The position numbers and the translations under genes are program-made. DNA of 64,000 nt from an uncultured Acidimicrobiaceae bacterium. Lineage in GTDB: Bacteria; Actinomycetota; Acidimicrobiia; Spongiisociales; UBA5794. Where the stretch lies: the NCBI GenBank assembly GCA_964581295.1, contig CAZONX010000003.1:2406-66405 (forward strand). Direction: 5' to 3'. Below, piece by piece: positions 10,299 through 25,716 of the stretch; positions within the stretch are counted from its first letter, which is position 1; each line of letters begins with the position of its first letter. Below the pieces are notes generated by a model. That model saw only the letters and a program-made list of their open reading frames with translations, was not told where the DNA came from and did no database searches.

Positions 10299-12605
10299 TC
10301 AGGTCGAGGGTTTCTCACCCGGCGGTAGGTCGGCCAATGCAGCAAGAACCTTCTCCGGGGTGACCGGCAGATCCCGAATACGAACGCCGATCGCGTCATA
10401 GAGCGCATTGGCGATCGCAGGCGGCGTCGCCGCGGCAGCCGGCTCTCCGACACCCTTGGCACCGAACGGGGCCTCCTCATGCACCGACTCGACGATGATC
10501 GGCACGATTTCCGGGAGATCCTGGATCGTCGCCACCTTGTAGTCGGCGAGGTTGCCGTTCTCGATGCGTCCGTCGCGAATAGAGAAGTGCTCGAGGATCC
10601 CATTTGAGAGGCCCATCACCACACCGCCCTCGATCTGCTGCTCGACCGTCATCGGATTGATGGCCTTGCCGACGTCGGCAGCCGCGGCCACCTTGACCAC
10701 GCTGATCACGCCGGTCTCGATGTCGACCTCGATCTCTGCGGCCTGGGTGCACAGCATCCAGAAGATGCTGCTCATCCACTCCTCACCGGGGTCGGCCTTG
10801 AGCAACGGCGACCGAGCTGACGAGAACCGCGATCCGGCCGTCATCGAGTAGCCCTCCCCCGCGAACTTCGCGAGCAGATCCCCAAGGGTGATCTTGACTT
10901 CATCGTCCAGGTCGTAGATGGAGCCGTTGCGAAGATCCAGGTCCTCCGCATCGACCTCGAGTACCTCGGCGGCCAGGCCCAGGATCTCCTCGCGGATCTC
11001 CGCGCCGGCAGCGACGATGGCGTTGCCCATGTGATAGGTGGTCCGACTCGAAGCGACCGGGCCGTTGTATGGCGTGAGCGCGGTGTCGGTGGCTGGCACC
11101 GACACGTGCTCGAGCGGGACACCAATCGCGTCCGCGGCCATCTGGGCGAGGACGGTGTCCTGCCCTGCGCCGATCTCCGGCGCCGCGCAGATCACCAGCA
11201 CACGACCGTCTTGTTCCATGTTGATCACGACGTTCGAACTCGACGGCGTCATCGTCGGCTTGATCATCGTGGCGATGCCCTTGCCGCGGCGCAGGTGCGG
11301 CGCCGGTTCGCGCTCGACCGATCCCCAGCCGATTTCGGCAGCCGTTCGTTCGATGGTCTCGGTGAGGCCGACGCTGTGCATGATCTGGCCGTTGAGGTAG
11401 GAATCGCCTTCCACGTATCCGTTCTTCAGTCGGATTTCGACCGGATCGAGATTCAGCTGCGCGGCGATCTCGTCCATCTGCGTCTCACACGCCCACGTCA
11501 CTTGGGTCGTGCCGTAACCGCGGTAGGAACCGGTGATCGCCTTGTTGGTGTAGACCTGCCGCGACAGGATTTCGATATTGGGGATGCGATACGGCCCGAC
11601 GATCGTCTGCGAGCCGCGGATGGCGACGCCGACGGTGTAGGCCGTGTAAGCCCCGCTGTCCCAGAGCACTTCGGCGCTCCTGGCGATCATCAGGCCGTCG
11701 CTGTTCACCCCGGTCTTCAGCTTCATGATCGCCGGCACGCGAAGCTGCGAGGCGATGAGGCACTCCTCGCGGGTGAACTCGACGCGGACCGGACGACCGC
11801 CGGAATTGCGCGCCAGGACGACCGCGATGGCCTCGGCGATTGGGACACCCTTGCCACCGAACGACCCACCGACCTGCGCAACGATCAGCCGGACCTGGGT
11901 GCTGGAGACGCCCAACCCTTCTGCGAGCTCGTTGCGGAGCAGGAATGGGCGATCGGTCGATACCCACAGGGTGTAGCCACCCGAACCCGCGTCGTACTCG
12001 GCGATCGCGGTGTGGACCTCGAGTGCGACATGGCTGATCGCGTGCGCCGAGTACTCCCCTTCGACCACCAGATCGGCGGCGGCGAAACCTTCCTCGACAT
12101 CGCCGCGCGAATACCGATAGAGCGTGTTGATATTGGTGTGGGGCACGATCTCATGCCCACCACGCTTGTAGGTGTGGAGATCAGGATGCACGAGTGGCGC
12201 GTCGGGATCGAGGGCGGCGCGCATGTCGACGATCGCCGGCAACTCCTCGTAGTCCACCGCAATGAGGTCGAGCGCCTCCTGTGCCTGCGCCTCGGTGGTC
12301 GCCGCGACCGCAACGACCGGTTCGCCGACATAGCGGACGCGGTCGATCGCGAGAAACGGTTGATCCTTGATCGCAGATCCGAACAACAGCGGGAAGTCGT
12401 TTCCCGTGACGACTGCCTCCACTCCCGGAGCCGACCGGGCGCGCGCTACGTCGATCGACACGATCCTGGCGTGTGGGTGTGGGCTTCGTAGAACCGCGCC
12501 GTGCAACATGCCAGGCATGGACAGGTCGACGGCGTAGACCGCGCTGCCTGTCACCTTGTCGACTGAGTCAACGCGTGGTGCCCGCGTGCCTACATACGTC
12601 GTCAT
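10299..12605 (-). CDS. molybdopterin-dependent hydroxylase large subunit, paralog 2 (XDH/aldehyde oxidase family)
   Basis: 768 aa, same domain architecture as 2739..4988 (…VVGGSFGGKG…, YRGYGTTQ, …AAPEIGAGQDTVLAQMAADAIGVP…). Start at MTTYVGT overlapping the stop of the 2Fe-2S gene (ATGA). Confidence 0.9.
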   Translation of the reverse strand: MTTYVGTRAPRVDSVDKVTGSAVYAVDLSMPGMLHGAVLRSPHPHARIVSIDVARARSAPGVEAVVTGNDFPLLFGSAIKDQPFLAIDRVRYVGEPVVAVAATTEAQAQEALDLIAVDYEELPAIVDMRAALDPDAPLVHPDLHTYKRGGHEIVPHTNINTLYRYSRGDVEEGFAAADLVVEGEYSAHAISHVALEVHTAIAEYDAGSGGYTLWVSTDRPFLLRNELAEGLGVSSTQVRLIVAQVGGSFGGKGVPIAEAIAVVLARNSGGRPVRVEFTREECLIASQLRVPAIMKLKTGVNSDGLMIARSAEVLWDSGAYTAYTVGVAIRGSQTIVGPYRIPNIEILSRQVYTNKAITGSYRGYGTTQVTWACETQMDEIAAQLNLDPVEIRLKNGYVEGDSYLNGQIMHSVGLTETIERTAAEIGWGSVEREPAPHLRRGKGIATMIKPTMTPSSSNVVINMEQDGRVLVICAAPEIGAGQDTVLAQMAADAIGVPLEHVSVPATDTALTPYNGPVASSRTTYHMGNAIVAAGAEIREEILGLAAEVLEVDAEDLDLRNGSIYDLDDEVKITLGDLLAKFAGEGYSMTAGSRFSSARSPLLKADPGEEWMSSIFWMLCTQAAEIEVDIETGVISVVKVAAAADVGKAINPMTVEQQIEGGVVMGLSNGILEHFSIRDGRIENGNLADYKVATIQDLPEIVPIIVESVHEEAPFGAKGVGEPAAAATPPAIANALYDAIGVRIRDLPVTPEKVLAALADLPPGEKPST

Positions 12606-13069
12606 CTGCGGACTCCTTTGATCTCTGCGACCGCTTCGAGGATCTTGGGATAGGCGCCGCATCGGCAGAGGATGCCGCTGAGCGCCTTCTTCACGTCCTC
12701 GATCTCCGGTTCATCGTCCCTTCTGAACATAGCAGTGGCTGTCAAGACCATGGCAGGGGTGCAGAACCCGCATTGGAACGCCCCGGTGTCGATGAATGCC
12801 TGCTGCACGTCGTTGAGTTCGCCGTCCTCGGCGAGGCCCTCCACGGTCTCGATGCTGGCACCGTCCGCGTCGCCGGCCAACACCAGGCACGAGGTGACCG
12901 GTTCACCGTCCGCGAGCACCACGCAGGTGCCGCACTCGCCGACTCCGCAGCCTTCCTTCGTCCCGGTGAGGAACACCTGCTCGCGTAGGACCTCGAGAAG
13001 AGTGAGGCGCGGATCGGTCGTGAGTTGGCGGGAAACTCCGTTCACCGTGACGTCGATAGTGATCGTCAT
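12602..13069 (-). CDS. (2Fe-2S)-binding small subunit, paralog 2
   Basis: MTITIDVTVNGV… with GTKEGCGVGECGTCVV and CGFCTPAM…CRCGAY cysteine clusters. True start at M82 of the track ORF (ATG 13069), ATGA-overlapping the FAD-subunit stop. Confidence 0.9.
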   Translation of the reverse strand: MTITIDVTVNGVSRQLTTDPRLTLLEVLREQVFLTGTKEGCGVGECGTCVVLADGEPVTSCLVLAGDADGASIETVEGLAEDGELNDVQQAFIDTGAFQCGFCTPAMVLTATAMFRRDDEPEIEDVKKALSGILCRCGAYPKILEAVAEIKGVRR

Positions 13070-13956
13070 GCCGCCACCTCCACACCCGCGGATTGCACGG
13101 CGGCACGAAGGGCCCGCAACGTGAGCACCCTCGCAAGCGTCGTGCGATACGACGCGCTGGCGCGCATGTCGCCGATCGGCTTCGCCTCGCCGGCGGCGGA
13201 CTGGGCGACAGCGGCGAGTGCCGCCTCCACTGGAATCTCCGAGCGAAGCAGCGCTTCGCTGGCAACCGCGCGAAATGGGGTCGGCCCGAGCGAGGCAAGG
13301 GCGATCATGCATTCGAGGACGCGGCCGTCGACGCCGAGAACCACACTCGCCGATACCCCTGCAAGAGCGATGTCGGTCCCGCTCCCCCGCTTGCCCAGCT
13401 TCACGTGCGCCGAGCCGAAACCCGCAGGCGGATCGGGGAGGAAGATCGACGTGATGATGTCGGACGACGCAAGCGTCGTCGCTCCCGGGCCCGAGTACAG
13501 ATCCTCCACCAAATCATCGCGAGCGCCGTCACGCCCCTCGATGGTGGCGACCGCCCGATGGACGATCAGCGCCGGTCCGAGATCGGATGCCGGCGACGCG
13601 CGACCCACATTGCCGCCGATCGTCGCCAGCGCCCGCACCGGCGGCGACGCAAGGATGGACGCGGCCTGAGCGAGTCCGGGGCAGCTCTCCTGCACGAGCG
13701 ATGACTGCTCGACGAGGGTCACCTTGGTCAGGGCTCCGATACGGATGCCTCCCTCGGCCGCTTCGATTCCGGTGAGGCCTGGCACGCGTTTGAGGTTCAC
13801 AACCGTCGACGGACGCATCCGGCCCGTCTTCATGTCGACGATGAGATCGGTCCCGCCGGCGAGCACGCGGGCGTCGTCCGGAGCGTCGGCGAGAACGTCG
13901 ATCGCTTCAGCCAGCGACGTCGGTTCGTGGTAGTCGAATGCGCGAAGTCGCTTCAC
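13066..13956 (-). CDS. FAD-binding subunit of Mo-hydroxylase, paralog 2 (CoxM-like)
   Basis: 296 aa, MKRLRAFDYHEPTSLAEAIDVLA…AGGTDLIVDMK…ATIGGNVGRASPASDLGPALIV…. Confidence 0.85.
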   Translation of the reverse strand: MKRLRAFDYHEPTSLAEAIDVLADAPDDARVLAGGTDLIVDMKTGRMRPSTVVNLKRVPGLTGIEAAEGGIRIGALTKVTLVEQSSLVQESCPGLAQAASILASPPVRALATIGGNVGRASPASDLGPALIVHRAVATIEGRDGARDDLVEDLYSGPGATTLASSDIITSIFLPDPPAGFGSAHVKLGKRGSGTDIALAGVSASVVLGVDGRVLECMIALASLGPTPFRAVASEALLRSEIPVEAALAAVAQSAAGEAKPIGDMRASASYRTTLARVLTLRALRAAVQSAGVEVAA

Positions 13957-13978
13957 CGATCATCCTTCGTGTTGGTGG

Positions 13979-14368
13979 TCATCCGGTCTGATGCAGCAGT
14001 TCGAGCGTAACGCCGTCTGGTGTCTCGACGAAGGCGATCTCATAGCCGCCGGGTCCCGGGCGTCGCTCGTAGATCTTGAGACCCTGCTCAGCGAAGCGCT
14101 CGAGGTCGGCGTCGAGATCGTCCGTCTCGATCCCGACGTGTTCGAGCCCGAGGTAGGGGATCGGCGGCGGGTCGTTGATGGTGTCGTCTTCGCCGGGCGC
14201 CGGCGTGGTGATGTTGAGACGGACGCCGTCGAACTCGACAGGAACGAAGAGCATCGTCTTGAACTGAATCTCGGGGAGCAACGTGCCCCCGAACATGTCG
14301 ATCCACCATGCCGCGCTGGCGCGGGGATCTCTCGATTTGATGTGGATGTGGTGGAGGACGTGTGCCAT
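13979..14368 (-). CDS. VOC-family (glyoxalase/bleomycin-resistance/dioxygenase fold) protein
   Basis: ~130 aa from MAHVLHHIHIKSRD…GLEHVGIETDDLDADLERFAEQGLKI…. The upstream part of track ORF 13979..14521 is Arg/Pro-rich and unlikely to be coding. First gene of Mo-hydroxylase operon 2. Confidence 0.65.
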   Translation of the reverse strand: MAHVLHHIHIKSRDPRASAAWWIDMFGGTLLPEIQFKTMLFVPVEFDGVRLNITTPAPGEDDTINDPPPIPYLGLEHVGIETDDLDADLERFAEQGLKIYERRPGPGGYEIAFVETPDGVTLELLHQTG

Positions 14369-14549
14369 GGCTCTCCTTGTCTTCGGTCGTTCCCCGCGTA
14401 CGATCGCGAGTCGACGACCCCGCTGCGGACGATCGGTTTCGGTCGCCGACGTTAGCCAGCCGGGCGCGCCCGGCCGAAAGGGGTCTGCCGAAGATCGGCT
14501 CATCACCGTCGCCGACGGCATGAATTGACGGACGGCAATTCTATTTCAT

Positions 14550-14561
14550 ATAATCGATTAT
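14550..14561. promoter_or_regulatory. perfect palindrome ATAATCGATTAT (site 2 of 3) in the divergent VOC-Mo-hydroxylase / Liv-ABC intergenic region, overlapping a TATAAT -10 hexamer
   Basis: TTGACG(14525-14530)-N18-TATAAT(14549-14554) on the plus strand. The palindrome begins inside the -10. Confidence 0.6.
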
Positions 14562-14727
14562 CAATGAAAGATTATTCCGTCGCAAGCATCGCGACACGCC
14601 GGGCGGACGATGCTGCACCTTCGTGTTCATGCCGTCGCATACACGGCATCGGTTCCGGCGTGGTATCTAGCGTGATTCAGCCGCTGGAGCCAACGGCTCC
14701 ACGTGGACGAGAAGAGGCCAGGGGCTG

Positions 14728-15600
14728 ATGGACATCATCTCCGACTCAATCGTTATTGGCCTGACGGAGCAGGCGCCCCTCATCCTCGCCGCCATGGGCT
14801 TCGCACTCCTCTACCGACTCACGGGCCTCATCAACGTGGCGTACTCGGAGACGATCACGCTCGGCGCCTACATGGGGATGTGGATCAACACCACGTTCGA
14901 GCTCAACTTCTACACCATCCTGATCCCGACCGGGATTGCCGCAGGGCTGATCAGCGTCGCCACCTACTTCGCGGTCTTCCGTCCGGCCAAGCTTCGCAAC
15001 GTCGGCGCCCTCGAAATGATCATCATCTCGTTCGGGCTGTCCGTGTTCCTCCGTCACGGCCTGCAGTTCATCTTCGGCTATCCGGTTCGGTTCTTCGATG
15101 TCCCGGCCCCGGACACGATCTTCGTACTGGGCGTCGGCGTGTCATCTTTCCGCCTCGTCGCCGTCGCCAGCGTCTTCATCCTCGCCTTCGGGCTCTACTG
15201 GTTCATCCAGAAGACGAGCTACGGGCTTCAGATCCGGGCCCTGGCGAGCGATGAGGATCTGGCGCAGGTCAGCGGAATCCGGCCAATGGCCGTGACCGTT
15301 CTCATTTGGTTCCTCGCCGGTGTCGCCGGTGGCCTCGCCGGTGCCTTCTACGGCGTCGGCTCTTCGGTCGCCCCGCTGCTCGGATGGCGCCAGTTCCTGT
15401 TCATCCTGCTGGTCGTCCTGGTCGGCGGGGCCAAGAACATCGGCGGCGTCATCATCGCCGGCGCGGTGACCGCCATCTCACTGACGTTCATGACGCTCCA
15501 GTTCGGCCAGGCGCTGTACGGCCAGATGATCCTCATCGTTGTGTTTGTCATCATCTTGAAGGTCCGCGGCACACGGTCGGCCGAAGCGGGGAAGGTGTAG
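14728..15600 (+). CDS. branched-chain-amino-acid-type ABC transporter permease (LivH-like)
   Basis: 290 aa polytopic membrane protein with typical LivH/BPD_transp_2 sequence. Follows a TTGACG-N18-TATAAT promoter-like element. Confidence 0.85.
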   Translation: MDIISDSIVIGLTEQAPLILAAMGFALLYRLTGLINVAYSETITLGAYMGMWINTTFELNFYTILIPTGIAAGLISVATYFAVFRPAKLRNVGALEMIIISFGLSVFLRHGLQFIFGYPVRFFDVPAPDTIFVLGVGVSSFRLVAVASVFILAFGLYWFIQKTSYGLQIRALASDEDLAQVSGIRPMAVTVLIWFLAGVAGGLAGAFYGVGSSVAPLLGWRQFLFILLVVLVGGAKNIGGVIIAGAVTAISLTFMTLQFGQALYGQMILIVVFVIILKVRGTRSAEAGKV

Positions 15601-15604
15601 CGCC

Positions 15605-16555
15605 ATGAATCTGGACTGGCTCGACGCATTCCTCGTCTACGGACTCTTCTCAGTCGTCATGGTGATCGGCCTGGCGCTGCTGCTTCACCTGCAACTCGGG
15701 CTCGCCCGCATCGCCAACTTCGGCATCGTGGGCTTCTGGGGCCTCGGGATGTACTCATTCGGCGTTCTGTTCGTCAAGGTCGATTGGCCGTTCGGAGAGA
15801 TCTGGGCGTTCCTGATCTCGATTGCCTTCGCGACACTCGTTGCCGGACTCGCCGGACTCGCCGTTGGATGGGTGATTGCCGACCTCGATATCGACGGTGT
15901 GCTGGTCGGCACGCTCGGCTTCGCTACGTGCGTAGCTCTCTTTGCGACGGCCGAACAGGACCTGACCGGCGGAGCCCTCGGTATGGGCGGACTCGGATTC
16001 CCCTACGACATTGGCAGCGTCAAGGCGAACGAGACGTTGTGGCTGGTCATCTTGACTGTCGTCGTTGGCTTGATCCTCTACTACGTGTCTCGCGTCCACA
16101 GGTCGCCATACGGTCGGTTGCTCATCGCGATCGGAGACAACGAGCCGCTGGCCCGCAGCCTCGGCAAGCAGTCGTTCCGGACGAAGCTGTGGTTGTTCGC
16201 AGGAAGCTCGGCGGTCATGGGTCTCCTTGGGGCGATGTTCGGCGTGATGGAGCGTTTCCTCGACATCGGCAACCTCGGCATCGACATCACCCTGGCAGTC
16301 ATGGTGGGGTTGGTGCTCGGTGGCGTCACCCGAACCTGGGGAGCCGTCGTCGGCGTCGTACTCACCGTGGCCGTATTCGACATTCTCCTTCAGTCCTACC
16401 TGCCGCTCCCCCAGTCGTGGTACGGCCAGGCAATCCCGAACCTTCGGGAGATGACGTTCGGCGCCGCACTCATTCTGGTGCTCATGTTCCGACCGTACGG
16501 CGTGCTCGGCCAGATGCGAAGAGACAAGCTGATGCGGAGGTTGCATGGTGGGTGA
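15605..16555 (+). CDS. branched-chain-amino-acid-type ABC transporter permease (LivM-like)
   Basis: 316 aa polytopic permease. 4-bp gap from the previous permease. Confidence 0.85.
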   Translation: MNLDWLDAFLVYGLFSVVMVIGLALLLHLQLGLARIANFGIVGFWGLGMYSFGVLFVKVDWPFGEIWAFLISIAFATLVAGLAGLAVGWVIADLDIDGVLVGTLGFATCVALFATAEQDLTGGALGMGGLGFPYDIGSVKANETLWLVILTVVVGLILYYVSRVHRSPYGRLLIAIGDNEPLARSLGKQSFRTKLWLFAGSSAVMGLLGAMFGVMERFLDIGNLGIDITLAVMVGLVLGGVTRTWGAVVGVVLTVAVFDILLQSYLPLPQSWYGQAIPNLREMTFGAALILVLMFRPYGVLGQMRRDKLMRRLHGG

Positions 16556-17372
16556 CATGGACAACACCGCGCCCGCAGAAGAGCCCGTGAGCGACCACCC
16601 GAGTTCGCGCCCGACCGTTCGTGTGCAGGGCGCCATCAAGAGCTTCGGTGGGCGAGTCGTGGTCGACGTCGAAGACCTGACGCTGGGGACGCATTCCATC
16701 GAAGGGCTGATCGGCCCGAACGGAGCGGGCAAGACGACACTGCTGCGCATGATCATGCACGCCATCTCCCTCGACGAGGGAACGGTCGTGCTCTCATCCA
16801 ACGGCAATGGCGACGAGACCATTCTCTCGAACCTGCCGGCCAGCAGCATGGCCCGCAACGGCATCGTGAAGACCAACCAGGTCATCACCGACTTCGAACA
16901 ATTGACCATCCTCGACTCGATGCTGCTCGCGGTCGACCAGCCATCCGACGAGCGTTCCTTCGCCATCTATCGCGAGTCGGGCCTCTACGCCGACCACATC
17001 GGTGAGATCCAGTGGTATCTCGACCAATTCGACTTCGAGGACCCCTACGGGTTCGCAAACTCCGCCGGTGAGAAGAAGCTGCTCGACATTATTCGATGTC
17101 TGCTGCTCAAGCCTCGCGTCCTGCTTCTCGACGAACCGACCGCAGGTCTCCCCGATGACATCCGCGATCAGATCATGGAACTGATCAAGCAGAAGGCCGC
17201 CAAGGAGAATATGGCCGTGGTGATCGTGGAGCACGACCTGCACGTCATCTGGAGCATGTGCGAATACGTTCACTTCATGGCGGAGGGGAGCGTTGTGTTG
17301 CAGGGCGAGCCCGCATTTATCCGAGATCATGAGACAGTGGTGGAGCAATACTTGGGAAGCGGCCATGTTTGA
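16545..17372 (+). CDS. ABC transporter ATP-binding protein (LivG-like)
   Basis: Walker A GPNGAGKTT, ABC signature, Walker B LLLDEPTAGL. Overlaps flanking genes. Confidence 0.85.
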   Translation: MVGDMDNTAPAEEPVSDHPSSRPTVRVQGAIKSFGGRVVVDVEDLTLGTHSIEGLIGPNGAGKTTLLRMIMHAISLDEGTVVLSSNGNGDETILSNLPASSMARNGIVKTNQVITDFEQLTILDSMLLAVDQPSDERSFAIYRESGLYADHIGEIQWYLDQFDFEDPYGFANSAGEKKLLDIIRCLLLKPRVLLLDEPTAGLPDDIRDQIMELIKQKAAKENMAVVIVEHDLHVIWSMCEYVHFMAEGSVVLQGEPAFIRDHETVVEQYLGSGHV

Positions 17373-18057
17373 AGCCACAGGTATCCAGAGCGGCTATACC
17401 GGCGTGACGGTGATCAAGGACCTCGACCTCGACGTAGAGCACGAGATTTTCGCGGTGCTCGGCGCCAACGGGGCAGGCAAAACAACTCTGCTCGCGACGC
17501 TGGCCCGGCTCATCCCGCTGACCGCCGGACAGATGACGTTCGATGGACAAGACATCACGACGGCCCACCCGTGGAACACGGCCGCGCTCGGTCTCGGCTA
17601 CGTGCCCCAGGAGAAGGGCGTCTTCGCCGATCTGACGGTGTTGGAGAACCTCCAGATCGGATCCATGATCGGCGACCGGAGTCAACAAGAACGGATCGAC
17701 GAGATCGTCGAACTCTTCCCCGACATCGGCAAGCGCCAGTCACAAATGGCCGGCACCCTCAGTGGCGGGGAGTCGCGCATGGTCGCCTGCGGACGAGCCT
17801 TGATGCAGGACCCAAAGATGCTTCTGCTGGACGAGCCAACCGCCGGGCTCTCGCCGCTCTACGTAGATACGTTCTTTGAAAAGATTCGCGAGATCCACGA
17901 GACGAAGGACGTCAGCATCATCCTGGCGGAACAGAACGCCACGAAGGCGCTCGAGATCTCAGATCGCGTCATGGTGCTGAGCCTCGGAGAGGCATCCGAA
18001 GTGCTCGATGCCGGTGAATGGACCACCGACAAGCTCAAGGAGGGTTACCGGATCTGA
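17365..18057 (+). CDS. ABC transporter ATP-binding protein (LivF-like)
   Basis: Start at MFEATGIQ (ATG 17365) overlapping the LivG stop as ATGTTTGA. Walker A GANGAGKTT, signature LSGGE, Walker B LLLDEPTAGL. Confidence 0.85.
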   Translation: MFEATGIQSGYTGVTVIKDLDLDVEHEIFAVLGANGAGKTTLLATLARLIPLTAGQMTFDGQDITTAHPWNTAALGLGYVPQEKGVFADLTVLENLQIGSMIGDRSQQERIDEIVELFPDIGKRQSQMAGTLSGGESRMVACGRALMQDPKMLLLDEPTAGLSPLYVDTFFEKIREIHETKDVSIILAEQNATKALEISDRVMVLSLGEASEVLDAGEWTTDKLKEGYRI

Positions 18058-18103
18058 TCGCTGTACGGCGATCCGAATGGAGGAAGAGAAAGGGAAGGGA
18101 CGA

Positions 18104-19585
18104 ATGCGAATACGTTCAAAGAGGTTTGCTAGCGGATTGATCTTGTTGTTCGTGCTTGCGCTGGTCGCCGCTGCTTGTAGCAGTGACAGCGACAGCGGAG
18201 ACAGCGACACGACCGCAGCACCTGAAACAACGACCGCCGCAGCGGGCGACACGACAACGACCGCCGCAGCGGGCGACACGACAACGACCGCCGCAGCGAC
18301 CGAAACGACGGAGGCCATGTCAACGGAGCCAGTGATCGTTTGCGAACTCGCATACTTCACGGGCGAGTTTGCGGCCTACGGACCGTCACTGACGGCGGAT
18401 GTTGAGTTCCCGATCAGCCAGATCATCAACAATGATCCGCCGCTCGGGCGCGAATGGCAGCTCATCTCCGAAGACATCGGTACGCCGGGTGAGGCTCAGG
18501 CAGCTCGTATCTGTCTCGAGCAGCACAACGCCGACATAATGGTCAGCCAGGCGCACGGCTATCGCCAGTACCGCGACTTCATGCTGGAGTATCTTGCCGA
18601 GAACGACAAGCCGCTCGGGCCAACGGTGCACGGCGGGAGCATCCCTGGGAACCTCGGCGGTGTTGGCTCTGAGCCGCTCTTCCGCGCACAGGGACTCGAC
18701 GAGGCGCTTGGCATGACCGGAGCCCTTGCGGCTCAAGATGCCGGCGCCACCTCGGTCGTGATCTTCGCGACCCAGGTCGAGGGTTTCCAGCTCGCGGCGA
18801 ACGCGGCTGAGACCACAGCTGAGGAGTTGGGATTGGAGGTCCTTGACCGGATCGACGTTCCCGCCGAGCAGCCGTCGTACGCAGCTGAAGCCCAACGCAT
18901 CGCCGATCTCGCACCGGATGCTGTGATCGTGCAGGCGGGCTCGGTGGAGTCGGCCACGCTGATCAAGCAGTCCTCTGAGGCCGGCTTGTCCCTCGACTGG
19001 ATCGGTGAGACGGGCTGGATTCAGCCGGAGTTCATCGATACGTTGGGCACGGAGCCCATCGCCAGCCAGAAGAGCGTCGGCTATGCGGCCTTCGCCTACA
19101 ACGACACGACCCCAGCATGGGCGTTCTTCGAGCCGCTGTGGGACGACACTGCCGGATACGGCGACCTGTACGGTCCGGCAACGGACCAGTACCACTTCTC
19201 CACGTACGACCTGATGACGCATACGGCGCTTGCCGTTGAGTACGCAGGCTCGTATGCGGCGAGTGCTTGGGCACCGGCCATGATCGAAGTTGGCAACCCG
19301 CCGGGCACGATGTGCTACACCTACCCGGAGTGCTTGGAACTCATCAGGGCCGGCGAAGACATCGACTACGAGGGTGTCACCGGACCGGGCCTCTACAGCA
19401 AGGGTGGCGTGAACGCACTCGTGCAGTCGTTCACCCCGTTCAATGACGACGGCACTGTCGGAGCGCCGGTCCTCCTCGATCCGGCGCTCGCGTTGGAGGT
19501 TCTCAGCATCATCGCCGTCCAGGCGGAGTGCGAGACCCCGAACCCGGCAGGGACGAACCCGGCATCACCAGGATGTGAGTGGTAA
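18104..19585 (+). CDS. ABC transporter substrate-binding lipoprotein (type-I periplasmic binding fold, Liv/amide-urea-like) with Thr/Ala-rich linker
   Basis: Start at MRIRSKRF (ATG 18104) behind GGAGGAAGAGAAAGGGAAGGGA. Signal peptide plus lipobox-like LVAAAC. Low-complexity SDSDSGDSDTT + (AGDTTTTAA)x2 linker, then a PBP type-I domain. Last gene of the operon. A strong terminator follows. Confidence 0.8.
   Translation: MRIRSKRFASGLILLFVLALVAAACSSDSDSGDSDTTAAPETTTAAAGDTTTTAAAGDTTTTAAATETTEAMSTEPVIVCELAYFTGEFAAYGPSLTADVEFPISQIINNDPPLGREWQLISEDIGTPGEAQAARICLEQHNADIMVSQAHGYRQYRDFMLEYLAENDKPLGPTVHGGSIPGNLGGVGSEPLFRAQGLDEALGMTGALAAQDAGATSVVIFATQVEGFQLAANAAETTAEELGLEVLDRIDVPAEQPSYAAEAQRIADLAPDAVIVQAGSVESATLIKQSSEAGLSLDWIGETGWIQPEFIDTLGTEPIASQKSVGYAAFAYNDTTPAWAFFEPLWDDTAGYGDLYGPATDQYHFSTYDLMTHTALAVEYAGSYAASAWAPAMIEVGNPPGTMCYTYPECLELIRAGEDIDYEGVTGPGLYSKGGVNALVQSFTPFNDDGTVGAPVLLDPALALEVLSIIAVQAECETPNPAGTNPASPGCEW
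18242..18295 (+). repeat. 27-bp tandem duplication (GCGGGCGACACGACAACGACCGCCGCA x2) encoding (AGDTTTTAA)x2 in the SBP linker
   Basis: Direct repeat seen in the DNA and in the translation. Confidence 0.6.
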
Positions 19586-19617
19586 CACCCAGCCAGGCAA
19601 GTAGGAGCAAACAAACA

Positions 19618-19655
19618 AGAGGAGCGGCAGCGGGTCATCCCGCTGCCGCTCCTCT
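19618..19655 (+). terminator. intrinsic terminator hairpin after the ABC operon (17-bp perfect stem AGAGGAGCGGCAGCGGG / CCCGCTGCCGCTCCTCT, loop TCAT, then CTTCGT)
   Basis: Seen directly in the sequence 31 nt after the SBP stop. Perfect inverted repeat with a 4-nt loop followed by a T-containing tail. Confidence 0.7.
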
Positions 19656-19697
19656 TCGTACGGAGTCTTCAGGACACCCGTCTGGCTTCGATCCTCG

Positions 19698-19709
19698 ATA
19701 ATCGATTAT
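19698..19709. promoter_or_regulatory. perfect palindrome ATAATCGATTAT (site 3 of 3) upstream of the AhpD-like-PTP-PPDK-like-UPF0261 operon, overlapping a TATACT -10-like hexamer
   Basis: Context gATCCTCGATAATCGATTATACTgc, 75 nt upstream of the AhpD-like start codon. Confidence 0.6.
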
Positions 19710-19782
19710 ACTGCATCTGTCTCGCCCGTCCCGGGACGGATTCGCATTTGTCGAGTCCACAGCAACACACGGAGGACCACCC

Positions 19783-20400
19783 ATGTCCCGACTCGACAAC
19801 ATCTCCCTCGACGGCATCGAGGAGCTCGACGGTGTCGAGGAGATGTACGAAACGGTGTTTGGGTTCGTCCCCAACGGCGTGCGCATCATGGCCCGGCGTC
19901 CCGGCATCGTTCAGGGATTCCTCCACTTGCGCCGCTCGGTCTTCGACCCCGCCACGAGCGAGGTACCGCTCGAGTTGAAGAGCCTCGTCGGACACATTGC
20001 CAGCAAGACGGCCGGCTGCCGCTATTGCCAAGCCCACGCGATCTACGGCTCCGATCGCTCGGGGACCGACCGTGCCCGACTCGAAGCCCTGTGGGATTTC
20101 GAGACCAGCGATCTTTTCGACGAATCGGAACGCGTCGCTCTGCGGTTCGCGGTGTCGGCGGCGGCGTCGCCCAACGGGGTAACCGACGAAGACTTCGTGC
20201 GGATGTCCGAGTACTGGGATGACGGGCAGATCGTCGAGATCCTTGCGGTCGTGGCGCTCTACGGCTTCCTCAATCGGTGGAACGACTCGCTGGCCACCAC
20301 CCTCGAAGAACCGTCGCAGACCGTCACCGAGGAAGTCCTCGGTTCGAAGGGCTGGGACGTTGGCAAGCATCGGCGAGACGGGGTCACCAACGTTGACTAG
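19783..20400 (+). CDS. carboxymuconolactone decarboxylase-family / AhpD-like protein
   Basis: 205 aa. AhpD-core-like CxxCxxxH (AGCRYCQAH). RBS ACGGAGGA. Preceded by the ATAATCGATTAT palindrome. Confidence 0.75.
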   Translation: MSRLDNISLDGIEELDGVEEMYETVFGFVPNGVRIMARRPGIVQGFLHLRRSVFDPATSEVPLELKSLVGHIASKTAGCRYCQAHAIYGSDRSGTDRARLEALWDFETSDLFDESERVALRFAVSAAASPNGVTDEDFVRMSEYWDDGQIVEILAVVALYGFLNRWNDSLATTLEEPSQTVTEEVLGSKGWDVGKHRRDGVTNVD

Positions 20401-21193
20401 CGACATCCGCTCCCCCGGTGAGGCCGCCGCTGTCGATGGAGCACCGAACTTTCGCGACATCGGCGGATACGAGACTTCCGACGGTCGCCGAGTCCGCTCC
20501 GGCAGGTTCTTCCGCTCTGGGATGCTGGCCGGGGTCACCGACGAAGGCGTCGCTACGCTCAGCGCCCTCGGGATCCGAACGGTCGTCGATCTGCGCACCC
20601 AGGTGGAGGTCGACGCATTCGGCCCGGACCGCCTACCGGACGACACCCGCGTGGTGCAGATCCGGGTCCCCAGTGCCGGTGCCGACCCGATGGTCGCTGA
20701 GGCGCTCAAGACCGGTCACTTCCCCTACCTGCCGAATCTCATATCGGTGAACCGTGCCTACATCACCGACGACGCCACCCAGTTCGGCGAACTCCTCACG
20801 CTCCTGGCCGATCCGGCCAACGTTCCCGTCGTGATCCACTGCCTCGGAGGGAAGGACCGGACGGGAGTGAGTACGGCGCTGCTGCTCACGATCCTCGGCG
20901 TCCCTTGGCCGACCGTACGCGACGATTACCTCCGCTCCAACGAGTACTTCGCAAGAGCCGTCGACGATGAGTCGGACTCGCTGAGCCGAGCCATGGAGGA
21001 CGGCCTCGGCCGGGCCCCGGACTACGGCGATGAAGCGTCGAAGAAGGAGTTCTTCGTGCTCCGCCCCGAGTACATCGATGTTGTGCTCGACGAAATCACG
21101 GAGAACGGCCGCACGATTGAAGAGTTCGTTAAGAGCGAACTTCAGCTTTCTGACATGACCGTGGAACGACTCCGCGAGGAGTTCCTGGAGTGA
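20393..21193 (+). CDS. protein-tyrosine phosphatase-family protein (Y_phosphatase3-like, CX5R active site)
   Basis: HCLGGKDRTG P-loop (CX5R). Track ORF 20219..21193 overlaps the upstream gene by 180 nt, so the true start is probably the TTG at ~20393 (GGAGAC upstream). Start uncertain. Confidence 0.65.
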   Translation: MTSDIRSPGEAAAVDGAPNFRDIGGYETSDGRRVRSGRFFRSGMLAGVTDEGVATLSALGIRTVVDLRTQVEVDAFGPDRLPDDTRVVQIRVPSAGADPMVAEALKTGHFPYLPNLISVNRAYITDDATQFGELLTLLADPANVPVVIHCLGGKDRTGVSTALLLTILGVPWPTVRDDYLRSNEYFARAVDDESDSLSRAMEDGLGRAPDYGDEASKKEFFVLRPEYIDVVLDEITENGRTIEEFVKSELQLSDMTVERLREEFLE

Positions 21194-21256: not shown

Positions 21257-23395
21257 ATGACCTACGTCTACGCATTCGACCACCGGCACGAGGGATCGCT
21301 CGACGAGACCAAGGCGCTGGTCGGGGGCAAGGGCGCGAACCTTGCGGTGATGACAAGCGATCTTGGTCTCCCGGTGCCGCCGGGGTTCACGATCTCGACC
21401 GAGGCCTGCCTGGCCTACCTCGCAGACGGATGGCCGGCCGGACTCGACGCGGAATTGCGAGGCCACATCGGCCGGGTCGAACAGACCGTTGGTCGGCGAT
21501 TCGGTGATCCCGCGAACCCGCTGCTCGTCAGTGTCCGGTCCGGCGCGCCGGTGTCCATGCCGGGAATGATGGACACAATCCTCAACCTGGGTATCAACGA
21601 GGCCACCGAACAGGGCCTTGTTGCGCTCTCCGGTGAGCCAGCGTTCGTCACCGCGTGCCGGGACCGGTTCATCTCTACCTACCGCGAGATCGTCGGCGTC
21701 GACGTCGTTCCAGAGGATCCATACGATCAACTCAAGGGAGCGGTCGAAGCCGTGTTCCGGTCGTGGAATGGCGATCGGGCGCGCAGCTACCGTTCACACG
21801 AAGGAATCTCCGAAGATCTCGGCACGGGCGTCACCGTGCAGGCAATGGTCTTCGGCAACAGCGGGCCCGATTCGGCCACGGGCGTGGTCTTCACGCGTAA
21901 CCCTGCCTCCGGTGAGCGAGTGCTCTACGGCGACGTCCTCTTCAACGCCCAAGGCGAAGACGTCGTTGCCGGCACCCATGCCACCGAGCCGATCTCTCAT
22001 CTCGATGAGCGGTCACCGGGTATCGCTGAGGAACTCAAGGCTCACTCCGACCGCCTCGAGCGTCACTACGCCGACGTCTGTGACATCGAGTTCACCATCG
22101 AATCCGGGAAGCTCTGGATGCTCCAGACGCGCGTCGGCAAGCGTTCTCCCGAGGCTGCCGTGCGTATTGCCGTGGACATGGCAGAGGACCCGGACTTCCC
22201 ACTCTCACGCGAGGACGCCGTGCACCGTGTCATGAATCATCTCGTCTCACCGCCCACTGCGGCAGCGAGGCTCGATGGGAACGCGCAACCCGTCACGACC
22301 GGTCTTGCCGCATCACCCGGTCTCGCGGCAGGTGCGATCGTGACGACTCCGGATGCCGCAGTTGCCGCCGCCGCCGAAGGCCGGTCGGTCATCCTCGTCC
22401 GCAAGGAGACGTCGCCGGATGATGTGCACGGCATGGCGGCTGCCGCGGGCATTCTCACGACAACCGGCGGTCTCGCCTCCCACGCTGCGGTGGTCGCACG
22501 AGGCTGGGGTATCCCAGCAGTTGTCGGTGCAGACACCATCACGATCGGCGAGTCCAGCGTGACGATCGGCGACGAAGCGGTCGCCATCGGTGAGTCGCTC
22601 ACCATCAACGGCGGTACCGGAAATGTCTTCCTCGGCGAGCTCGTCGGCGAGACGGTTGTTGTGCCCGAGGCCGCGCAGCTCTTGGCATGGGCAGACGAAC
22701 TCGGAATCGAGATCGCTGCGGAGGCCGACGACGCGCCAGCCCCGACGGAGGCCGGCGACGCGCCCGATGACAGAACGGCCAATACGGAGTCGATGATCCG
22801 ACTGCTCAGCATCAAGGGATTCTCAACGCCCGACGCAGCCGCCGCTGCACTCGACACAACGGAGGAGAACGCTTCCGGCATCCTCGACACGATGACCGCC
22901 GACGGTCTCGTCACGATGATGGGCACCATGTTCAGCCTCTCGGATGACGGCAAGTCGGTCGCCGCAGAGTTCCTCGCCGTCGACCGCGAGGACTGGGGGG
23001 CGGAACGCGCCGCGGCGGGACTCGATGGCTTCATCCCGCTGGACCAGCGGATGAAGGTGATTGTCACGGCGTGGCAAATGATGGAGGTCGACGGAGCACC
23101 CGTTCTCAACGACCACAACGACGTCGACTACGACACTGCGGTCCTCGCGGACCTCGCGGCGCTCCATTTCGACGCCGCCGCCTGGCTCGCCGACCTCCAC
23201 GACGAGCTCCCCCGCCTTATCTCGTACACGGAGAGGCTCGGACGAGCTGCCGACCTCGTGCAGAGCGGTGACCACGACTACATCGCCTCTCCGCGGCTCG
23301 ACAGCTACCACAACGTATGGTTTGAGTTGCATGAGGACCTCATCCTGCTCGCCGGCCGCACCCGTGAAGACGAGGTAGCGTCCGGGCGCGCGTAG
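21257..23395 (+). CDS. pyruvate-phosphate-dikinase N-terminal-like protein: ATP-grasp nucleotide-binding domain + phosphohistidine domain, lacking the PEP/pyruvate TIM-barrel, with an unknown C-terminal domain
   Basis: The N-terminus matches the PPDK start closely (MTYVYAFDH…LVGGKGANLAVMTSDLGLPVPPGFTISTEAC…). The His domain is TTGGLASHAAVVARGWGIPAVVG at ~aa 400. The last ~240 aa do not resemble the PPDK/PEPS C-terminal barrel. A wHTH-like segment (IRLLSIKGF…GILDTMTADGLVTMMGTMFSLSDDGKSVAAEF) is visible. RBS GAGGAG. Confidence 0.75.
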   Translation: MTYVYAFDHRHEGSLDETKALVGGKGANLAVMTSDLGLPVPPGFTISTEACLAYLADGWPAGLDAELRGHIGRVEQTVGRRFGDPANPLLVSVRSGAPVSMPGMMDTILNLGINEATEQGLVALSGEPAFVTACRDRFISTYREIVGVDVVPEDPYDQLKGAVEAVFRSWNGDRARSYRSHEGISEDLGTGVTVQAMVFGNSGPDSATGVVFTRNPASGERVLYGDVLFNAQGEDVVAGTHATEPISHLDERSPGIAEELKAHSDRLERHYADVCDIEFTIESGKLWMLQTRVGKRSPEAAVRIAVDMAEDPDFPLSREDAVHRVMNHLVSPPTAAARLDGNAQPVTTGLAASPGLAAGAIVTTPDAAVAAAAEGRSVILVRKETSPDDVHGMAAAAGILTTTGGLASHAAVVARGWGIPAVVGADTITIGESSVTIGDEAVAIGESLTINGGTGNVFLGELVGETVVVPEAAQLLAWADELGIEIAAEADDAPAPTEAGDAPDDRTANTESMIRLLSIKGFSTPDAAAAALDTTEENASGILDTMTADGLVTMMGTMFSLSDDGKSVAAEFLAVDREDWGAERAAAGLDGFIPLDQRMKVIVTAWQMMEVDGAPVLNDHNDVDYDTAVLADLAALHFDAAAWLADLHDELPRLISYTERLGRAADLVQSGDHDYIASPRLDSYHNVWFELHEDLILLAGRTREDEVASGRA

Positions 23396-23436
23396 GTTCA
23401 AGCGCGGCAACCCGCGAACCCGAAGGAGCCTGACCA

Positions 23437-24675
23437 ATGGCCACCGTTGTGCTACTCGGAGCGCTCGACACCAAGGGCAACGAGTATGCGTTCCTCAGGG
23501 ATCGGGTGATCGACGCCGGCTGTGACGTCCTCATGGTCAACGCCGGTGTGCTTGGTGATCCCGACTACCCCGTCGACTTCGGCCGAGCGGAAGTCGCGAG
23601 CGAGGCCGGCGCCGACATCGATGCCCTGGTGGCAGCTGGGGATCGCGGTGCCGCCGTGACCGCCATGGCCGAGGGCGCGGCTGCCCTGATTCTGCACCTC
23701 TGTGAGCAGGGAAAGATCCACGGCATTCTCGGCATGGGGGGATCCGGCAGTTCCTCGATCATCAGCCACGCCATGAGAAGGCTGCCGATCGGGTTCCCGA
23801 AGCTCCTCGTGTCGACCATGGGTGCGGGCGATGTGAGCGCGTTCGTCGGAACCTCCGACATCGCCATGATGTACTCGGTGGTCGACATCGCGGGGATCAA
23901 CGCCGTGTCCTCGAACATCCTCGGGAACGCCGCAGCAGGTTTGTCCGGCATGGCGAAGGCCTTCGAGGTTCGCGACGCGTCCGTCGACGGTCGGCCCCTC
24001 ATCGGGGCCACGATGTATGGAACGACGACGCCGTGCGTCGACCGGGCCCGCGCCACGCTCGACGCATTGGGGTACGAGGTTCTGGTCTTCCACGCCACAG
24101 GCACCGGGGGTCGCTCCATGGAGGCCTTGGTCAACAGCGGCTACATCACCGGCGTGCTCGACGTGACGACGACCGAACTCGCCGACGAGATCGCCGGCGG
24201 CACCCTCACGGCCGGCCCCGACCGCCTCGAAGCAGCGGGAGCCCTCGGCCTCCCACAAGTGGTATCGATCGGCGCCGTCGACCAGATCACGTTCACGCCG
24301 CAGTCGGCGGTTCCGGCCGAGTACCGAGATCGCAACGTCTACGACCACAATCCGAGCATCTCGCTCGTGCGTACCAACGCAGAGGAGAGCGCCAAACTGG
24401 GCCGCATGCTCGCTGAGAAGCTGAACCAGGCTGCCGGGCCAGTCTCGCTCTTCGTCCCGCTCCAGGGCGGATCGTCGTATGCCATCAAGGGCGCGGTCTT
24501 CCATGATCCAGAGGCCGACGCGGCTCTCGTTGAGAGCATTCGCGCTCACCTCGATCCGAAGGTGGAACTGGTCGAGATGGACACCGACATCAATGACCCC
24601 ACCTTTGCCGACGCCATGGCACGACGCCTCGACGAGCACTACCGCGCCTGGGCAAGCGGGCAGTCACACCGCTAG
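23437..24675 (+). CDS. UPF0261-family protein (Tm-1 N-terminal-domain-like)
   Basis: 412 aa, MATVVLLGALDTKGNEYAFLRDRVIDAGCDVLMVNAGVLG… is typical of UPF0261. RBS GAAGGAG. Follows the PPDK-like gene by 41 bp. Confidence 0.75.
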   Translation: MATVVLLGALDTKGNEYAFLRDRVIDAGCDVLMVNAGVLGDPDYPVDFGRAEVASEAGADIDALVAAGDRGAAVTAMAEGAAALILHLCEQGKIHGILGMGGSGSSSIISHAMRRLPIGFPKLLVSTMGAGDVSAFVGTSDIAMMYSVVDIAGINAVSSNILGNAAAGLSGMAKAFEVRDASVDGRPLIGATMYGTTTPCVDRARATLDALGYEVLVFHATGTGGRSMEALVNSGYITGVLDVTTTELADEIAGGTLTAGPDRLEAAGALGLPQVVSIGAVDQITFTPQSAVPAEYRDRNVYDHNPSISLVRTNAEESAKLGRMLAEKLNQAAGPVSLFVPLQGGSSYAIKGAVFHDPEADAALVESIRAHLDPKVELVEMDTDINDPTFADAMARRLDEHYRAWASGQSHR

Positions 24676-24708: not shown

Positions 24709-25716
24709 ATGTCAAACGGTGACTCTGCACAGGGGCCGGCGGCCAACCGGCCGATCTACGTCGAGCGGGTGAACGCCGTCATCGACTACATCGAGTTCCA
24801 CCTGGCCGACGATCTCGACCTCGAGACGTTGGCCGACGTGGCGCACTTCTCCCCCTATCACTTCCATCGGATCTTCACCACGATGGTGGGCGAGACCTTG
24901 AGTCGCTTCATTGCACGGGTCCGCGTCGAGCGAGCCGCGACCCTGCTGATCCAGCACCCCGAACGGTCGGTCACCGAGACTGCCGTGGCGTGCGGGTTCA
25001 CCAACCCGTCGTCGTTCGCGAGAGCGTTCAGGGAGGCCTTCGGGATGAGTGCATCCGCATGGAGGACAGAAGGGTTCGCGGACTACGAGCGGGAACCGGG
25101 CGAGACCATCCATGATGTGATCGGTAATGTCGGGCGAATCGACGAGGCGTACGGTGTTCTCGAAACCGCGTTCGACCCCACCACCGGGGCCGTCGCCTGG
25201 ACGGTCGGCGCCGGGTCGCTCGGGCCGGTCAGTGTGACCATCGAACGCATGCCTGCGATGCATGTCGCCTACGTGCGCCACACCGGTCGCTATCAGGGCC
25301 TCGGCGAAGTATTCGCGGATCTCTTCACCCGCCTCATGGCGTGGGCGCAGCCCCGAGGATTCGTCACCCCGCAGGCCTCGCTGCTCTCGGTGTATCACGA
25401 CAATCCGAGCATCACCGAAGACGACCGGCTGCGCGTCAGCGTATGCATCGCCGTGCCCGAGGAAACCGAGGCGTCTGGCGGCATCGGGCGCATGGAAGTC
25501 GAGGGAGGCACATTCGCAGTCGGGCATTTCGAACTCGGCGAGCATGACTACCCCGAGGCCTGGTACACCATCGCCGGCGGCTGGTTACCCGAGAGCGGCT
25601 ACGAACCCGACGATCGACTCCCGTTCGAGCGCTTCCCGATTGGCCACACCGCGGCAGATCTCGACAACCACGTTGTCGAGATCTGGCTGCCGGTGCGGCC
25701 GCTCCGGCGCTACTGA
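24709..25716 (+). CDS. AraC-family transcriptional regulator with C-terminal GyrI-like effector-binding domain
   Basis: N-terminal AraC HTH pair (…LADVAHFSPYHFHRIFTTMVGETLSRFIARVRVERAATLL…CGFTNPSSFARAFREAFGMSASAWR). C-terminal GyrI-like small-molecule-binding domain. Confidence 0.8.
   Translation: MSNGDSAQGPAANRPIYVERVNAVIDYIEFHLADDLDLETLADVAHFSPYHFHRIFTTMVGETLSRFIARVRVERAATLLIQHPERSVTETAVACGFTNPSSFARAFREAFGMSASAWRTEGFADYEREPGETIHDVIGNVGRIDEAYGVLETAFDPTTGAVAWTVGAGSLGPVSVTIERMPAMHVAYVRHTGRYQGLGEVFADLFTRLMAWAQPRGFVTPQASLLSVYHDNPSITEDDRLRVSVCIAVPEETEASGGIGRMEVEGGTFAVGHFELGEHDYPEAWYTIAGGWLPESGYEPDDRLPFERFPIGHTAADLDNHVVEIWLPVRPLRRY

Follow-up and report, generated by a model that had tools for sequence, protein, structure and literature searches.

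A truncated pyruvate, phosphate dikinase fused to a putative partner module in an operator-linked, predicted catabolic regulon of an uncultured Acidimicrobiaceae bacterium

Truncated pyruvate, phosphate dikinases (PPDKs) are an already known class of kinases. The Mycobacterium tuberculosis member Rv1127c/VadK, characterised in 2026, autophosphorylates on His422 in an ATP- and Mg-dependent manner, gains solubility on co-expression with its operonic partner Rv1126c, co-purifies with this partner until a 2 M NaCl wash separates the two, and pulls down methylcitrate-cycle enzymes and alters flux; the role of Rv1126c was not studied in that work (PMC13400623). Related phosphotransfer systems include HpeHI, CreHI and PpsAB, two-component dikinases that depend on an ATP-grasp component supplied separately (PMC12167813), and the UPF0261 kinase MarK, which phosphorylates acetovanillone and other aromatics with ATP, yields ADP and is functionally analogous to AcvAB and HpeHI, both of them two-component dikinases (PMC12624787). 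Here we analyzed a stretch of 64,000 nucleotides (the window) from an uncultured Acidimicrobiaceae bacterium (GenBank assembly GCA_964581295.1, contig CAZONX010000003.1, positions 2,406 to 66,405), which encodes at 21257-23395 on the plus strand a 712-amino-acid (aa) protein composed of a truncated PPDK and a C-terminal winged-helix/helical-bundle module. We propose, with a probability of about 0.45, that this protein is a VadK-type truncated PPDK fused to its partner module and would serve (hetero)aromatic catabolism as the ATP-driven histidine-phosphoryl donor within a multi-component dikinase or phosphorelay.

The kinase part consists of an ATP-grasp nucleotide-binding domain (aa 1 to ~340; 21257-22276, plus strand), which matches Pfam PPDK_N with an E-value of 2.4e-48 and aligns to 1GGO, and of a swivelling phosphohistidine domain (aa ~345-468; 22289-22660, plus strand) with a PEP-utilizers match at aa 377-455 (E-value 2.3e-20). 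Both domains and both linker segments align with PPDK from C. symbiosum (1KBL/1DIK, E about 1e-118), and the match to solved PPDKs (E-value 1.6e-118) extends from the N-terminus to aa ~491, the expected start of the phosphoenolpyruvate (PEP)/pyruvate barrel; the swivelling-domain mechanism is presumably retained. The motif GGLASHAAVVARGWGIP occupies aa 404-420, with GGLASH at aa 404-409, and its alignment with the catalytic histidine of PPDK points to His409 (codon 22481-22483) as the putative phospho-acceptor. His409 and the ATP-grasp site residues K25, R94, E278, Q290 and R292 are invariant among 51 family members (alignment A3), and Ala407 replaces the regulatory threonine of PPDK. The ATP-grasp insertion is shorter than in canonical PPDK. 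By homology through the PPDK alignment (the PPDK histidine and the arginine of SVRSGA), His409 and Arg94 would correspond to His422 and Arg106 of VadK.

The truncated character of the protein is evident from curated family models. NF004531 (PRK05878), a 534-position NCBIfam model of truncated "PPDK", is passed with 494.5 bits against a cut-off of 456 over aa 12-480, while TIGR01828, the model of true PPDK, is failed with 546.2 bits against 843.45. We take the NF004531 family to include VadK, which the window protein also resembles in combining a PPDK-derived ATP-grasp domain and a swivel histidine in the absence of the PEP/pyruvate barrel. A Pfam search of the 712-aa protein found no PEP-utilizers_C barrel (PF02896), and a rifampin-binding-type second-substrate domain was likewise absent in Pfam and NCBIfam searches. 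The gene itself is real, since its 120 best homologues are 62-100% identical (681-743 aa) and 118 of them align over the full length; the ATG is preceded by a ribosome-binding site (RBS), GAGGAG. An ordinary PPDK whose barrel has diverged or is provided in trans would agree with the close alignment of the ATP-grasp and swivel domains to solved PPDKs and with the public annotation of the family as "pyruvate, phosphate dikinase". However, the TIM barrel is missing, the TIGR01828 score is subthreshold, neither a PEP_hydrolase nor a barrel homologue was found in the window, and the structure prediction described below refutes a barrel at the C-terminus. An ordinary PPDK is therefore excluded.

A disordered tether rich in Ala, Asp and Pro (aa 488-506; 22718-22774, plus strand) connects the kinase part to the module and is the sole segment with a predicted local distance difference test score (pLDDT) below 50 in the full-length AlphaFold2 model (overall pLDDT 86.3, predicted template modelling score (pTM) 0.65). 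Residues 480-712 gave no Pfam match above cut-off apart from weak winged-helix matches below it, no NCBIfam match and no PDB sequence match. The AlphaFold2 model of aa 510-712, based on 87 sequences (alignment A1), is highly confident (pLDDT 97.5, pTM 0.92) and shows an acidic winged-helix subdomain (aa 510-567; 22784-22957, plus strand) followed by a helical bundle with one beta-hairpin (aa 568-712; 22958-23392, plus strand). A Foldseek search of this model against the PDB returned nothing at E ≤ 0.001 and hence no whole-module counterpart. Conservation is concentrated in the bundle and is lowest in the winged helix. The conserved motifs WQ (606-607), NDHxDxxYD (618-626), R653, Y657, R660 and DSYHxxWFELHE (682-693) are invariant or nearly so down to 30% identity, and W97, N109, H111, G162, W179 and E181 are invariant in alignment A1 over the same range. 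The resulting invariant cluster of the bundle comprises W606, Q607, N618, D619, H620, D622, Y625, D626, R653, Y657, R660, D682, S683, Y684, H685, W688, E690, H692, E693 and R703.

Much of this had been anticipated in the initial annotation, which described a PPDK-type ATP-grasp and phosphohistidine domain, a missing PEP/pyruvate barrel, a winged-helix-like C-terminal segment and a protein distinct from a central-metabolism PPDK; all four descriptions hold, and the C-terminus is confidently all-alpha plus winged helix, with no diverged barrel. The same annotation had called the C-terminal domain novel. It is indeed unannotated, but it is not unique: an exhaustive search with the C-terminus yielded 1382 representative clusters, and a genome scan revealed at least 592 loci that encode the architecture, which is thus widespread. 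In the 80 best of these at least 592 loci the arrangement is the fused one, with one of the 80 lying on a short contig with the module alone, and the fused loci belong mostly to Acidimicrobiia, Chloroflexota (Limnocylindrales, Chloroflexia) and Dormibacterota.

The module also occurs in split form. M. branderi, M. avium and M. lentiflavum encode a truncated PPDK of 522-542 aa followed, 14 bp downstream or with an overlap, by a gene for a 200-201-aa protein that is homologous to the window module (42% identity, 1e-22). As the module homologue is the next gene in these mycobacteria, the arrangement recalls the ~200-aa partner that is physically associated with VadK. The window protein differs in that the partner is fused in the same polypeptide, and in that its gene is part of a molybdenum hydroxylase (Mo-hydroxylase)/RPH-like catabolic regulon and is not located beside prpDC. 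The module loci of M. lentiflavum and M. vicinigordonae are not at the prpDC locus either. The M. tuberculosis protein is not among the 120 best listed homologues of the M. branderi module, which include many 201-aa Mycobacterium proteins. M. vicinigordonae (L097; L-numbers denote related genome loci and P-numbers homologous proteins of this analysis) carries a stand-alone module gene (8001-8606) without an adjacent truncated PPDK in an acyl-CoA dehydrogenase/P450 cluster. The same cluster encodes at 14660-16606 an epimerase + Rph_4th + PEP-utilizers protein that resembles NCBIfam PRK05865.

Natural fusions connect the module to further enzymes. In P0150 and P0160 it is fused behind RPH-like swivel proteins, and P0172 (1049 aa) and P0264 (1256 aa) combine an RPH/HpeH-like protein, a truncated PPDK and the module in a single chain and thereby carry two swivel-histidine domains in one polypeptide. 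A Rhodococcus plasmid encodes a fusion of the module to an AMP-binding enzyme, followed by a truncated PPDK, and P0195 is a fusion of a HAD hydrolase and the module. These fusions bear on the possibility that the 712-aa protein is a self-contained small-molecule dikinase, whose bundle would bind the acceptor substrate, thereby adding a third solution to those of the PEP/pyruvate barrel and the rifampin-binding domain, and which would operate independently of the RPH-like protein. The module begins exactly where the barrel is expected to start, it is preceded by a flexible tether, its invariant polar cluster contains three arginines suited to phosphate binding, and the fused gene is found in loci that have no RPH-like gene within the stretch available. 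Yet P0150, P0160 and P0264 join the module to RPH-like proteins that have a substrate-binding region of their own, a bundle of ~145 aa is a small scaffold for an active site, and no solved enzyme has a similar fold; we consider a self-contained dikinase unlikely.

The window encodes an RPH/HpeH-like protein of its own, a 592-aa "PEP-utilizing enzyme" (8135-9913, minus strand) with a substrate-binding region and a swivel histidine and without an ATP-grasp domain. It matches PRK08296, PigC and RPH C-terminal models of NCBIfam as well as Pfam PEP-utilizers (aa 517-587), and is 60% identical to the product of a Rph_4th + PEP-utilizers gene in L092. In other genomes the RPH-like gene is a tandem or divergent neighbour of the fused gene (L022, L050, L061, L072 and L076) or is found one gene away (L043), and no other ATP-grasp gene was detected in the 22-kb clusters examined. 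When the neighbours were clustered over 85 loci, the fused gene was found directly downstream of a Mo-hydroxylase set in ~60 of them. This set consists of a ~290-aa P-loop protein and CoxM-, CoxS- and CoxL-like subunits, often followed by a PF04199 cyclase and a Zn-alcohol dehydrogenase (Zn-ADH); orthologues of a metallo-beta-lactamase are present in 47 of the 85 loci and an SDR in 31. The neighbour clusters unk117, unk146, unk148, unk187 and c13 of the open reading frame (ORF) caller were discarded as Ala/Pro/Ser/Arg-rich shadow ORFs. The partners kept across phyla are accordingly the RPH/HpeH-like swivel protein, GntR, the Mo-hydroxylase trio, the cyclase, the Zn-ADH, the metallo-beta-lactamase and the SDR, with UPF0261 at the other end of the cluster. 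In Chloroflexia, for which 10-kb flanks were inspected, the order is UPF0261, PEP_hydrolase, RPH-like gene (no ATP-grasp), GntR, P-loop gene, CoxM, CoxS, CoxL, cyclase, ZnADH, fused kinase and SDR, and the cyclase and Zn-ADH genes directly precede the fused kinase gene.

The minus strand of the window is collinear with this Chloroflexia cluster from the RPH-like gene to the Zn-ADH gene (795-9913), at 49-68% identity; in most relatives the fused kinase gene closes the cluster. In addition to the RPH-like gene it carries a GntR/FCD-family regulator (7370-8098; NCBIfam match, 49% identical to L092 GntR), the conserved ~290-aa protein, whose P-loop is GGESNHGKS-like (6352-7230), the Mo-hydroxylase trio (2739-6330) with CoxM-like FAD (5458-6330), CoxS-like 2Fe-2S (4985-5461) and CoxL-like Mo (2739-5048) subunits, the PF04199 cyclase-family hydrolase (1855-2724) and the Zn-alcohol dehydrogenase (795-1892). 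The trio is 58-67% identical to the Pfam-annotated genes of L092 in tblastn comparisons, and its best NCBIfam matches, the alpha subunit of 4-hydroxybenzoyl-CoA reductase and XdhA, are below cut-off. In at least 25 loci the gene of the P-loop protein is the first of the Mo-hydroxylase set (its L092 counterpart is at 3452-4339); the protein matches no Pfam or NCBIfam family and shows only sub-threshold similarity to the P-loops of PEPCK and HprK. A relationship to the DUF7065 proteins encoded next to RPH-like genes of M. lentiflavum was considered and rejected. The fused kinase and UPF0261 genes sit together at 21-24 kb, away from the collinear cluster. As genes from opposite ends of the Chloroflexia cluster adjoin here, the two appear to have moved together.

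A further recurrent neighbour is a phosphatase. The window gene for a CX5R phosphatase of the Y_phosphatase3 family (20393-21193, plus strand; Pfam E-value 3.5e-59, motif HCLGGKDRTG) precedes the fused gene, and Y_phosphatase3 genes adjoin module-bearing genes in distant lineages as well (L007, 1801-2562; L094, 9123-9788; L090, which is R. opacus B4 pROB02, 1793-5000). On pROB02 the phosphatase gene and the module-bearing gene share 8 bp, and in L095 a low-molecular-weight protein tyrosine phosphatase (LMWPc, 2903-3376) is located near the module-bearing gene.

These associations also matter for the view that the 712-aa protein is a regulatory histidine kinase as proposed for VadK, whose phospho-state would bind or tune pathway enzymes, with the module as adaptor or sensor and without a phosphorylated small molecule. 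The autophosphorylation of VadK, its pull-down of methylcitrate-cycle enzymes and the change in flux (PMC13400623) are in line with such a role, as are the adaptor-like fusions of the module to unrelated enzymes (the AMP-binding enzyme and the HAD hydrolase of P0195) and the acidic winged helix, which resembles protein-binding rather than DNA-binding types. In contrast, conservation within the module peaks at a polar cluster of His, Asp, Glu and Arg, as is typical of catalytic or ligand sites, the fusion and adjacency to RPH/HpeH-like small-molecule kinase components is systematic, and the association with aryl-phosphate-type phosphatases is recurrent. On balance, a purely regulatory kinase appears improbable to us.

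A palindromic operator connects the fused gene with the Mo-hydroxylase cluster. Its 10-bp core TAATCGATTA is present exactly three times in the window, compared to 0.29 occurrences expected with one mismatch allowed. Site A (10233-10247, core 10235-10244) lies upstream of the RPH-like/GntR/Mo-hydroxylase operon on the minus strand. Site B (14548-14563, core 14551-14560) is in the divergent region between VOC/CoxM2S2L2 genes (minus strand) and an ABC transporter (plus strand). Site C, GATAATCGATTATAC (19697-19711, core 19699-19708), is located 72 bp upstream of the CMD gene, which is the first gene of the operon of the fused kinase. The three sites tie this CMD-phosphatase-kinase operon to a regulon of ~24 kb. 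Among 96 related loci, we found 16 exact copies of TAATCGATTA versus 0.045 expected, and 43 with one mismatch, mostly T[C/G]ATCGATTA; the occurrences span two phyla. In L008, L047 and L095 the palindrome immediately precedes the fused gene, in L096 it precedes both the ABC transporter and the RPH-like gene, and the position of site C is kept in L002, L005 and L006. The GntR protein (7370-8098) is the obvious candidate for binding the palindrome; no GntR gene was found within 10 kb in L095 and L096.

Alternatively, the 712-aa protein could be a phosphorylation-controlled one-component transcription factor whose winged helix binds TAATCGATTA and whose kinase part switches binding. The MarR/DtxR-like fold of the winged helix, the palindromes that immediately precede the fused gene in L008, L047 and L095, their presence in L095 and L096 without a GntR gene nearby, and the naming of stand-alone module homologues as "MarR family transcriptional regulator" (L086, 4890-5492; L088, 4965-5597; many 201-aa Mycobacterium proteins) could be taken to suggest this. 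However, across the 87 sequences the net charge of the putative recognition helix averages -1.8 and its Lys+Arg count 0.8 (-3 and none in the window protein), conservation of the module is lowest in the winged helix, MarR and helix-turn-helix (HTH) family models gave sub-threshold matches only (E-values 0.003-0.2), and the cluster encodes a GntR regulator. In comparison with MarR/DtxR-type regulators, the recognition helix in the first 58 residues of the module is thus acidic and without conserved basic residues, and the helical bundle is unrelated to the dimerisation and metal domains of MarR and MntR. From these sequence features, DNA binding by the module is unlikely and the public "MarR family" name is probably a mis-annotation. 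We rate a transcription factor as very unlikely, and as less likely than either the regulatory or the self-contained kinase. A metal domain of the DtxR/MntR type was not supported: an hhalign comparison with B. subtilis MntR covered the winged helix only.

The operon itself comprises four co-directional genes. The CMD/AhpD-like gene (19783-20400, plus strand; Pfam CMD, NCBIfam match below cut-off) is followed by the Y_phosphatase3 gene, whose true start is probably the TTG at 20393, with an 8-bp overlap with the upstream CMD gene up to its stop codon and probable translational coupling. Then come the fused kinase gene and, 41 bp past its stop codon and with its own RBS, the UPF0261 gene (23437-24675, plus strand), behind which an AraC/GyrI-like gene is listed in the window (24709-25716). 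A sigma-70-like promoter was looked for before the operon and none was found. Upstream, on the plus strand, lies a branched-chain-type ATP-binding cassette (ABC) transporter with two permeases, two ATPases and one binding protein (14728-19585), which is conserved in L002, L005, L006 and L096. A hairpin with a perfect 18-bp stem and a 4-nt loop (19617-19656) follows the binding-protein gene, parts the transporter from the operon and ends 41 bp before site C; a terminator scan scores it on the minus strand. On the other side of site B, a second, paralogous CoxL/S/M set (10299-14521, minus strand) is ~36-51% identical to the first and has a VOC/glyoxalase-superfamily gene (13979-14521) ahead of it.

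Several expectations of the initial annotation concerned this operon. The UPF0261 gene 41 bp downstream, the CX5R tyrosine phosphatase and the palindromic operator ahead of the unit were all found as described. An AhpD-like protein with the motif CxxCxxxH had also been assumed; the gene is CMD/AhpD-like, but its motif is CRYCQAH, i.e. CxxCxxH, one residue short of the AhpD type, and the gene is kept only in L002, L005 and L006. As to the conservation of the neighbourhood, the cluster partners are kept across phyla, whereas only relatives that are at least 76% identical, again L002, L005 and L006, share the CMD-phosphatase-kinase-UPF0261 order and the ABC transporter ahead of it. The suggestion of a phosphorelay or small-molecule phosphorylation module pointed in the right direction, but the conserved functional unit is not the four-gene one. 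L006 (CAXMQO010000036.1) is labelled "uncultured Saprospiraceae", yet its ABC-CMD-phosphatase-kinase-UPF0261 block is the same and is 73-83% identical to that of the window, which points to an error in binning or labelling or to a recent transfer.

The UPF0261 protein contains both Pfam halves (PF06792 and PF23189), has an NCBIfam match and is a predicted ATP-dependent kinase of the Tm-1/MarK family, with PDB matches to Tm-1 (1e-79) and MarK (9MPY, 7e-62). Its residues D11-T12-K13 align with D14-T15-K16 of MarK, K13 being the ATP-site lysine. With respect to the acetovanillone pocket of MarK, G195, T196, H219 and H304 are kept, while H348 is replaced by Tyr, F283 by Gln and I285 by Thr. In comparison with MarK and Tm-1 (9MPY, 3WRY), the protein therefore retains both halves, the ATP-site lysine, the phenol-contacting Gly and His and the stacking His, but since Tyr takes the place of the ketone-binding His348 and Gln that of Phe283, its substrate probably differs from that of MarK. 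A second difference is the absence from the window of the usual PEP_hydrolase partner gene, as had been remarked initially; this gene follows UPF0261 in seven relatives (L041, L043, L068, L073, L082, L092 and L093).

The preferred reading, a VadK-type donor with a fused partner, can be laid out in four steps. First, as shown for other proteins and by homology to PPDK and VadK, the ATP-grasp domain would bind Mg-ATP and phosphorylate His409 on the swivel domain. Second, judged from its anatomy, the ~200-aa module on its flexible tether would stand in the place of the barrel, as an acidic, probably non-DNA-binding winged helix plus helical bundle; the sole candidate for a second site is the invariant cluster of His, Asp, Glu, Arg and Tyr in this bundle, because the swivel domain needs one and the protein has no other conserved surface. 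Third, the RPH/HpeH-like protein (8135-9913) would be the partner, as gene fusions, adjacency and the shared operator suggest, and the two would jointly form a multi-component ATP-driven dikinase or a His-to-His phosphorelay. Fourth, the compound to be phosphorylated would be a hydroxylated aromatic or heteroaromatic one, an intermediate of the pathway for which the same regulon codes, i.e. the ABC transporter, two Mo-hydroxylases, the VOC protein, the cyclase-type hydrolase and dehydrogenases; the adjoining CX5R phosphatase may remove the phosphate again, and the MarK-like UPF0261 protein may serve as a second, ADP-forming kinase of the pathway.

Rifampin phosphotransferase and HpeHI, CreHI, PpsAB and AcvAB offer a precedent for such a division of labour, as they follow a modular logic of ATP-grasp, swivel histidine and second-substrate domain, with components on separate polypeptides (PMC12167813). 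The HpeHI-type dikinases further share the catabolic setting with a downstream phosphatase (PMC12167813), and the 592-aa window protein is HpeH-like without ATP-grasp. They differ from the window system, in which the ATP-grasp domain is of the PPDK type and is accompanied by its own swivel histidine and an extra module, and in which the two genes are not always adjacent.

A number of points weigh against the proposed donor role. A swivel histidine in the fused protein is superfluous for a simple HpeI-like ATP-grasp donor, so that a His-to-His relay has to be assumed. The full-length AlphaFold2 model, with a pTM of only 0.65, contains no usable interdomain information. No Mo-hydroxylase is found within 6-10 kb in L003 and L094-L096, and part of the synteny could be inheritance among related metagenome-assembled genomes of Chloroflexota. 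Homology of Rv1126c to the window module is inferred by analogy from the gene order in other mycobacteria and from its length of 201 aa. Moreover, the authors of the VadK study favour a regulatory role through protein-protein interaction and not a small-molecule product (PMC13400623).

We also considered a more far-reaching version, in which the module would be a new, third kind of partner domain for swivel-histidine enzymes, next to the PEP/pyruvate barrel and the rifampin-type domain. It would serve as the docking or transfer station of an ATP-driven, phosphotransferase system (PTS)-like His-to-His relay from a PPDK-derived autokinase to an HpeH/RPH-like substrate kinase, activating hydroxylated (hetero)aromatics produced by Mo-hydroxylases, and Rv1126c would be the missing functional partner of VadK. 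This version is speculative, and in its full form we regard it as rather doubtful. The likeness to PTS Enzyme I and HPr is by analogy only and lies in a swivel-histidine domain beside a helical docking subdomain and in His-to-His phosphotransfer; there, however, the phosphoryl source is PEP instead of ATP, and neither the sequence nor the fold of the module showed homology to EIN-alpha or HPr. The fused partner, its recurrent fusions to swivel proteins and the operator-linked regulon are not mentioned in the VadK, MarK and HpeHI papers that were found, although no dedicated literature search was made.

Overall, the annotation "pyruvate, phosphate dikinase" is given to truncated PPDKs everywhere, although they are unable to make PEP. 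VadK is the only characterised member and is needed for virulence. The natural fusions described here suggest the ~200-aa neighbour protein and RPH/HpeH-like swivel proteins as working partners of VadK, by which the question of what VadK phosphorylates becomes a set of direct in vitro tests. In Acidimicrobiia and Chloroflexota, three unrelated types of kinases (PPDK-derived, RPH-like and UPF0261) and a CX5R phosphatase would thereby be tied to one operator-defined catabolic regulon.

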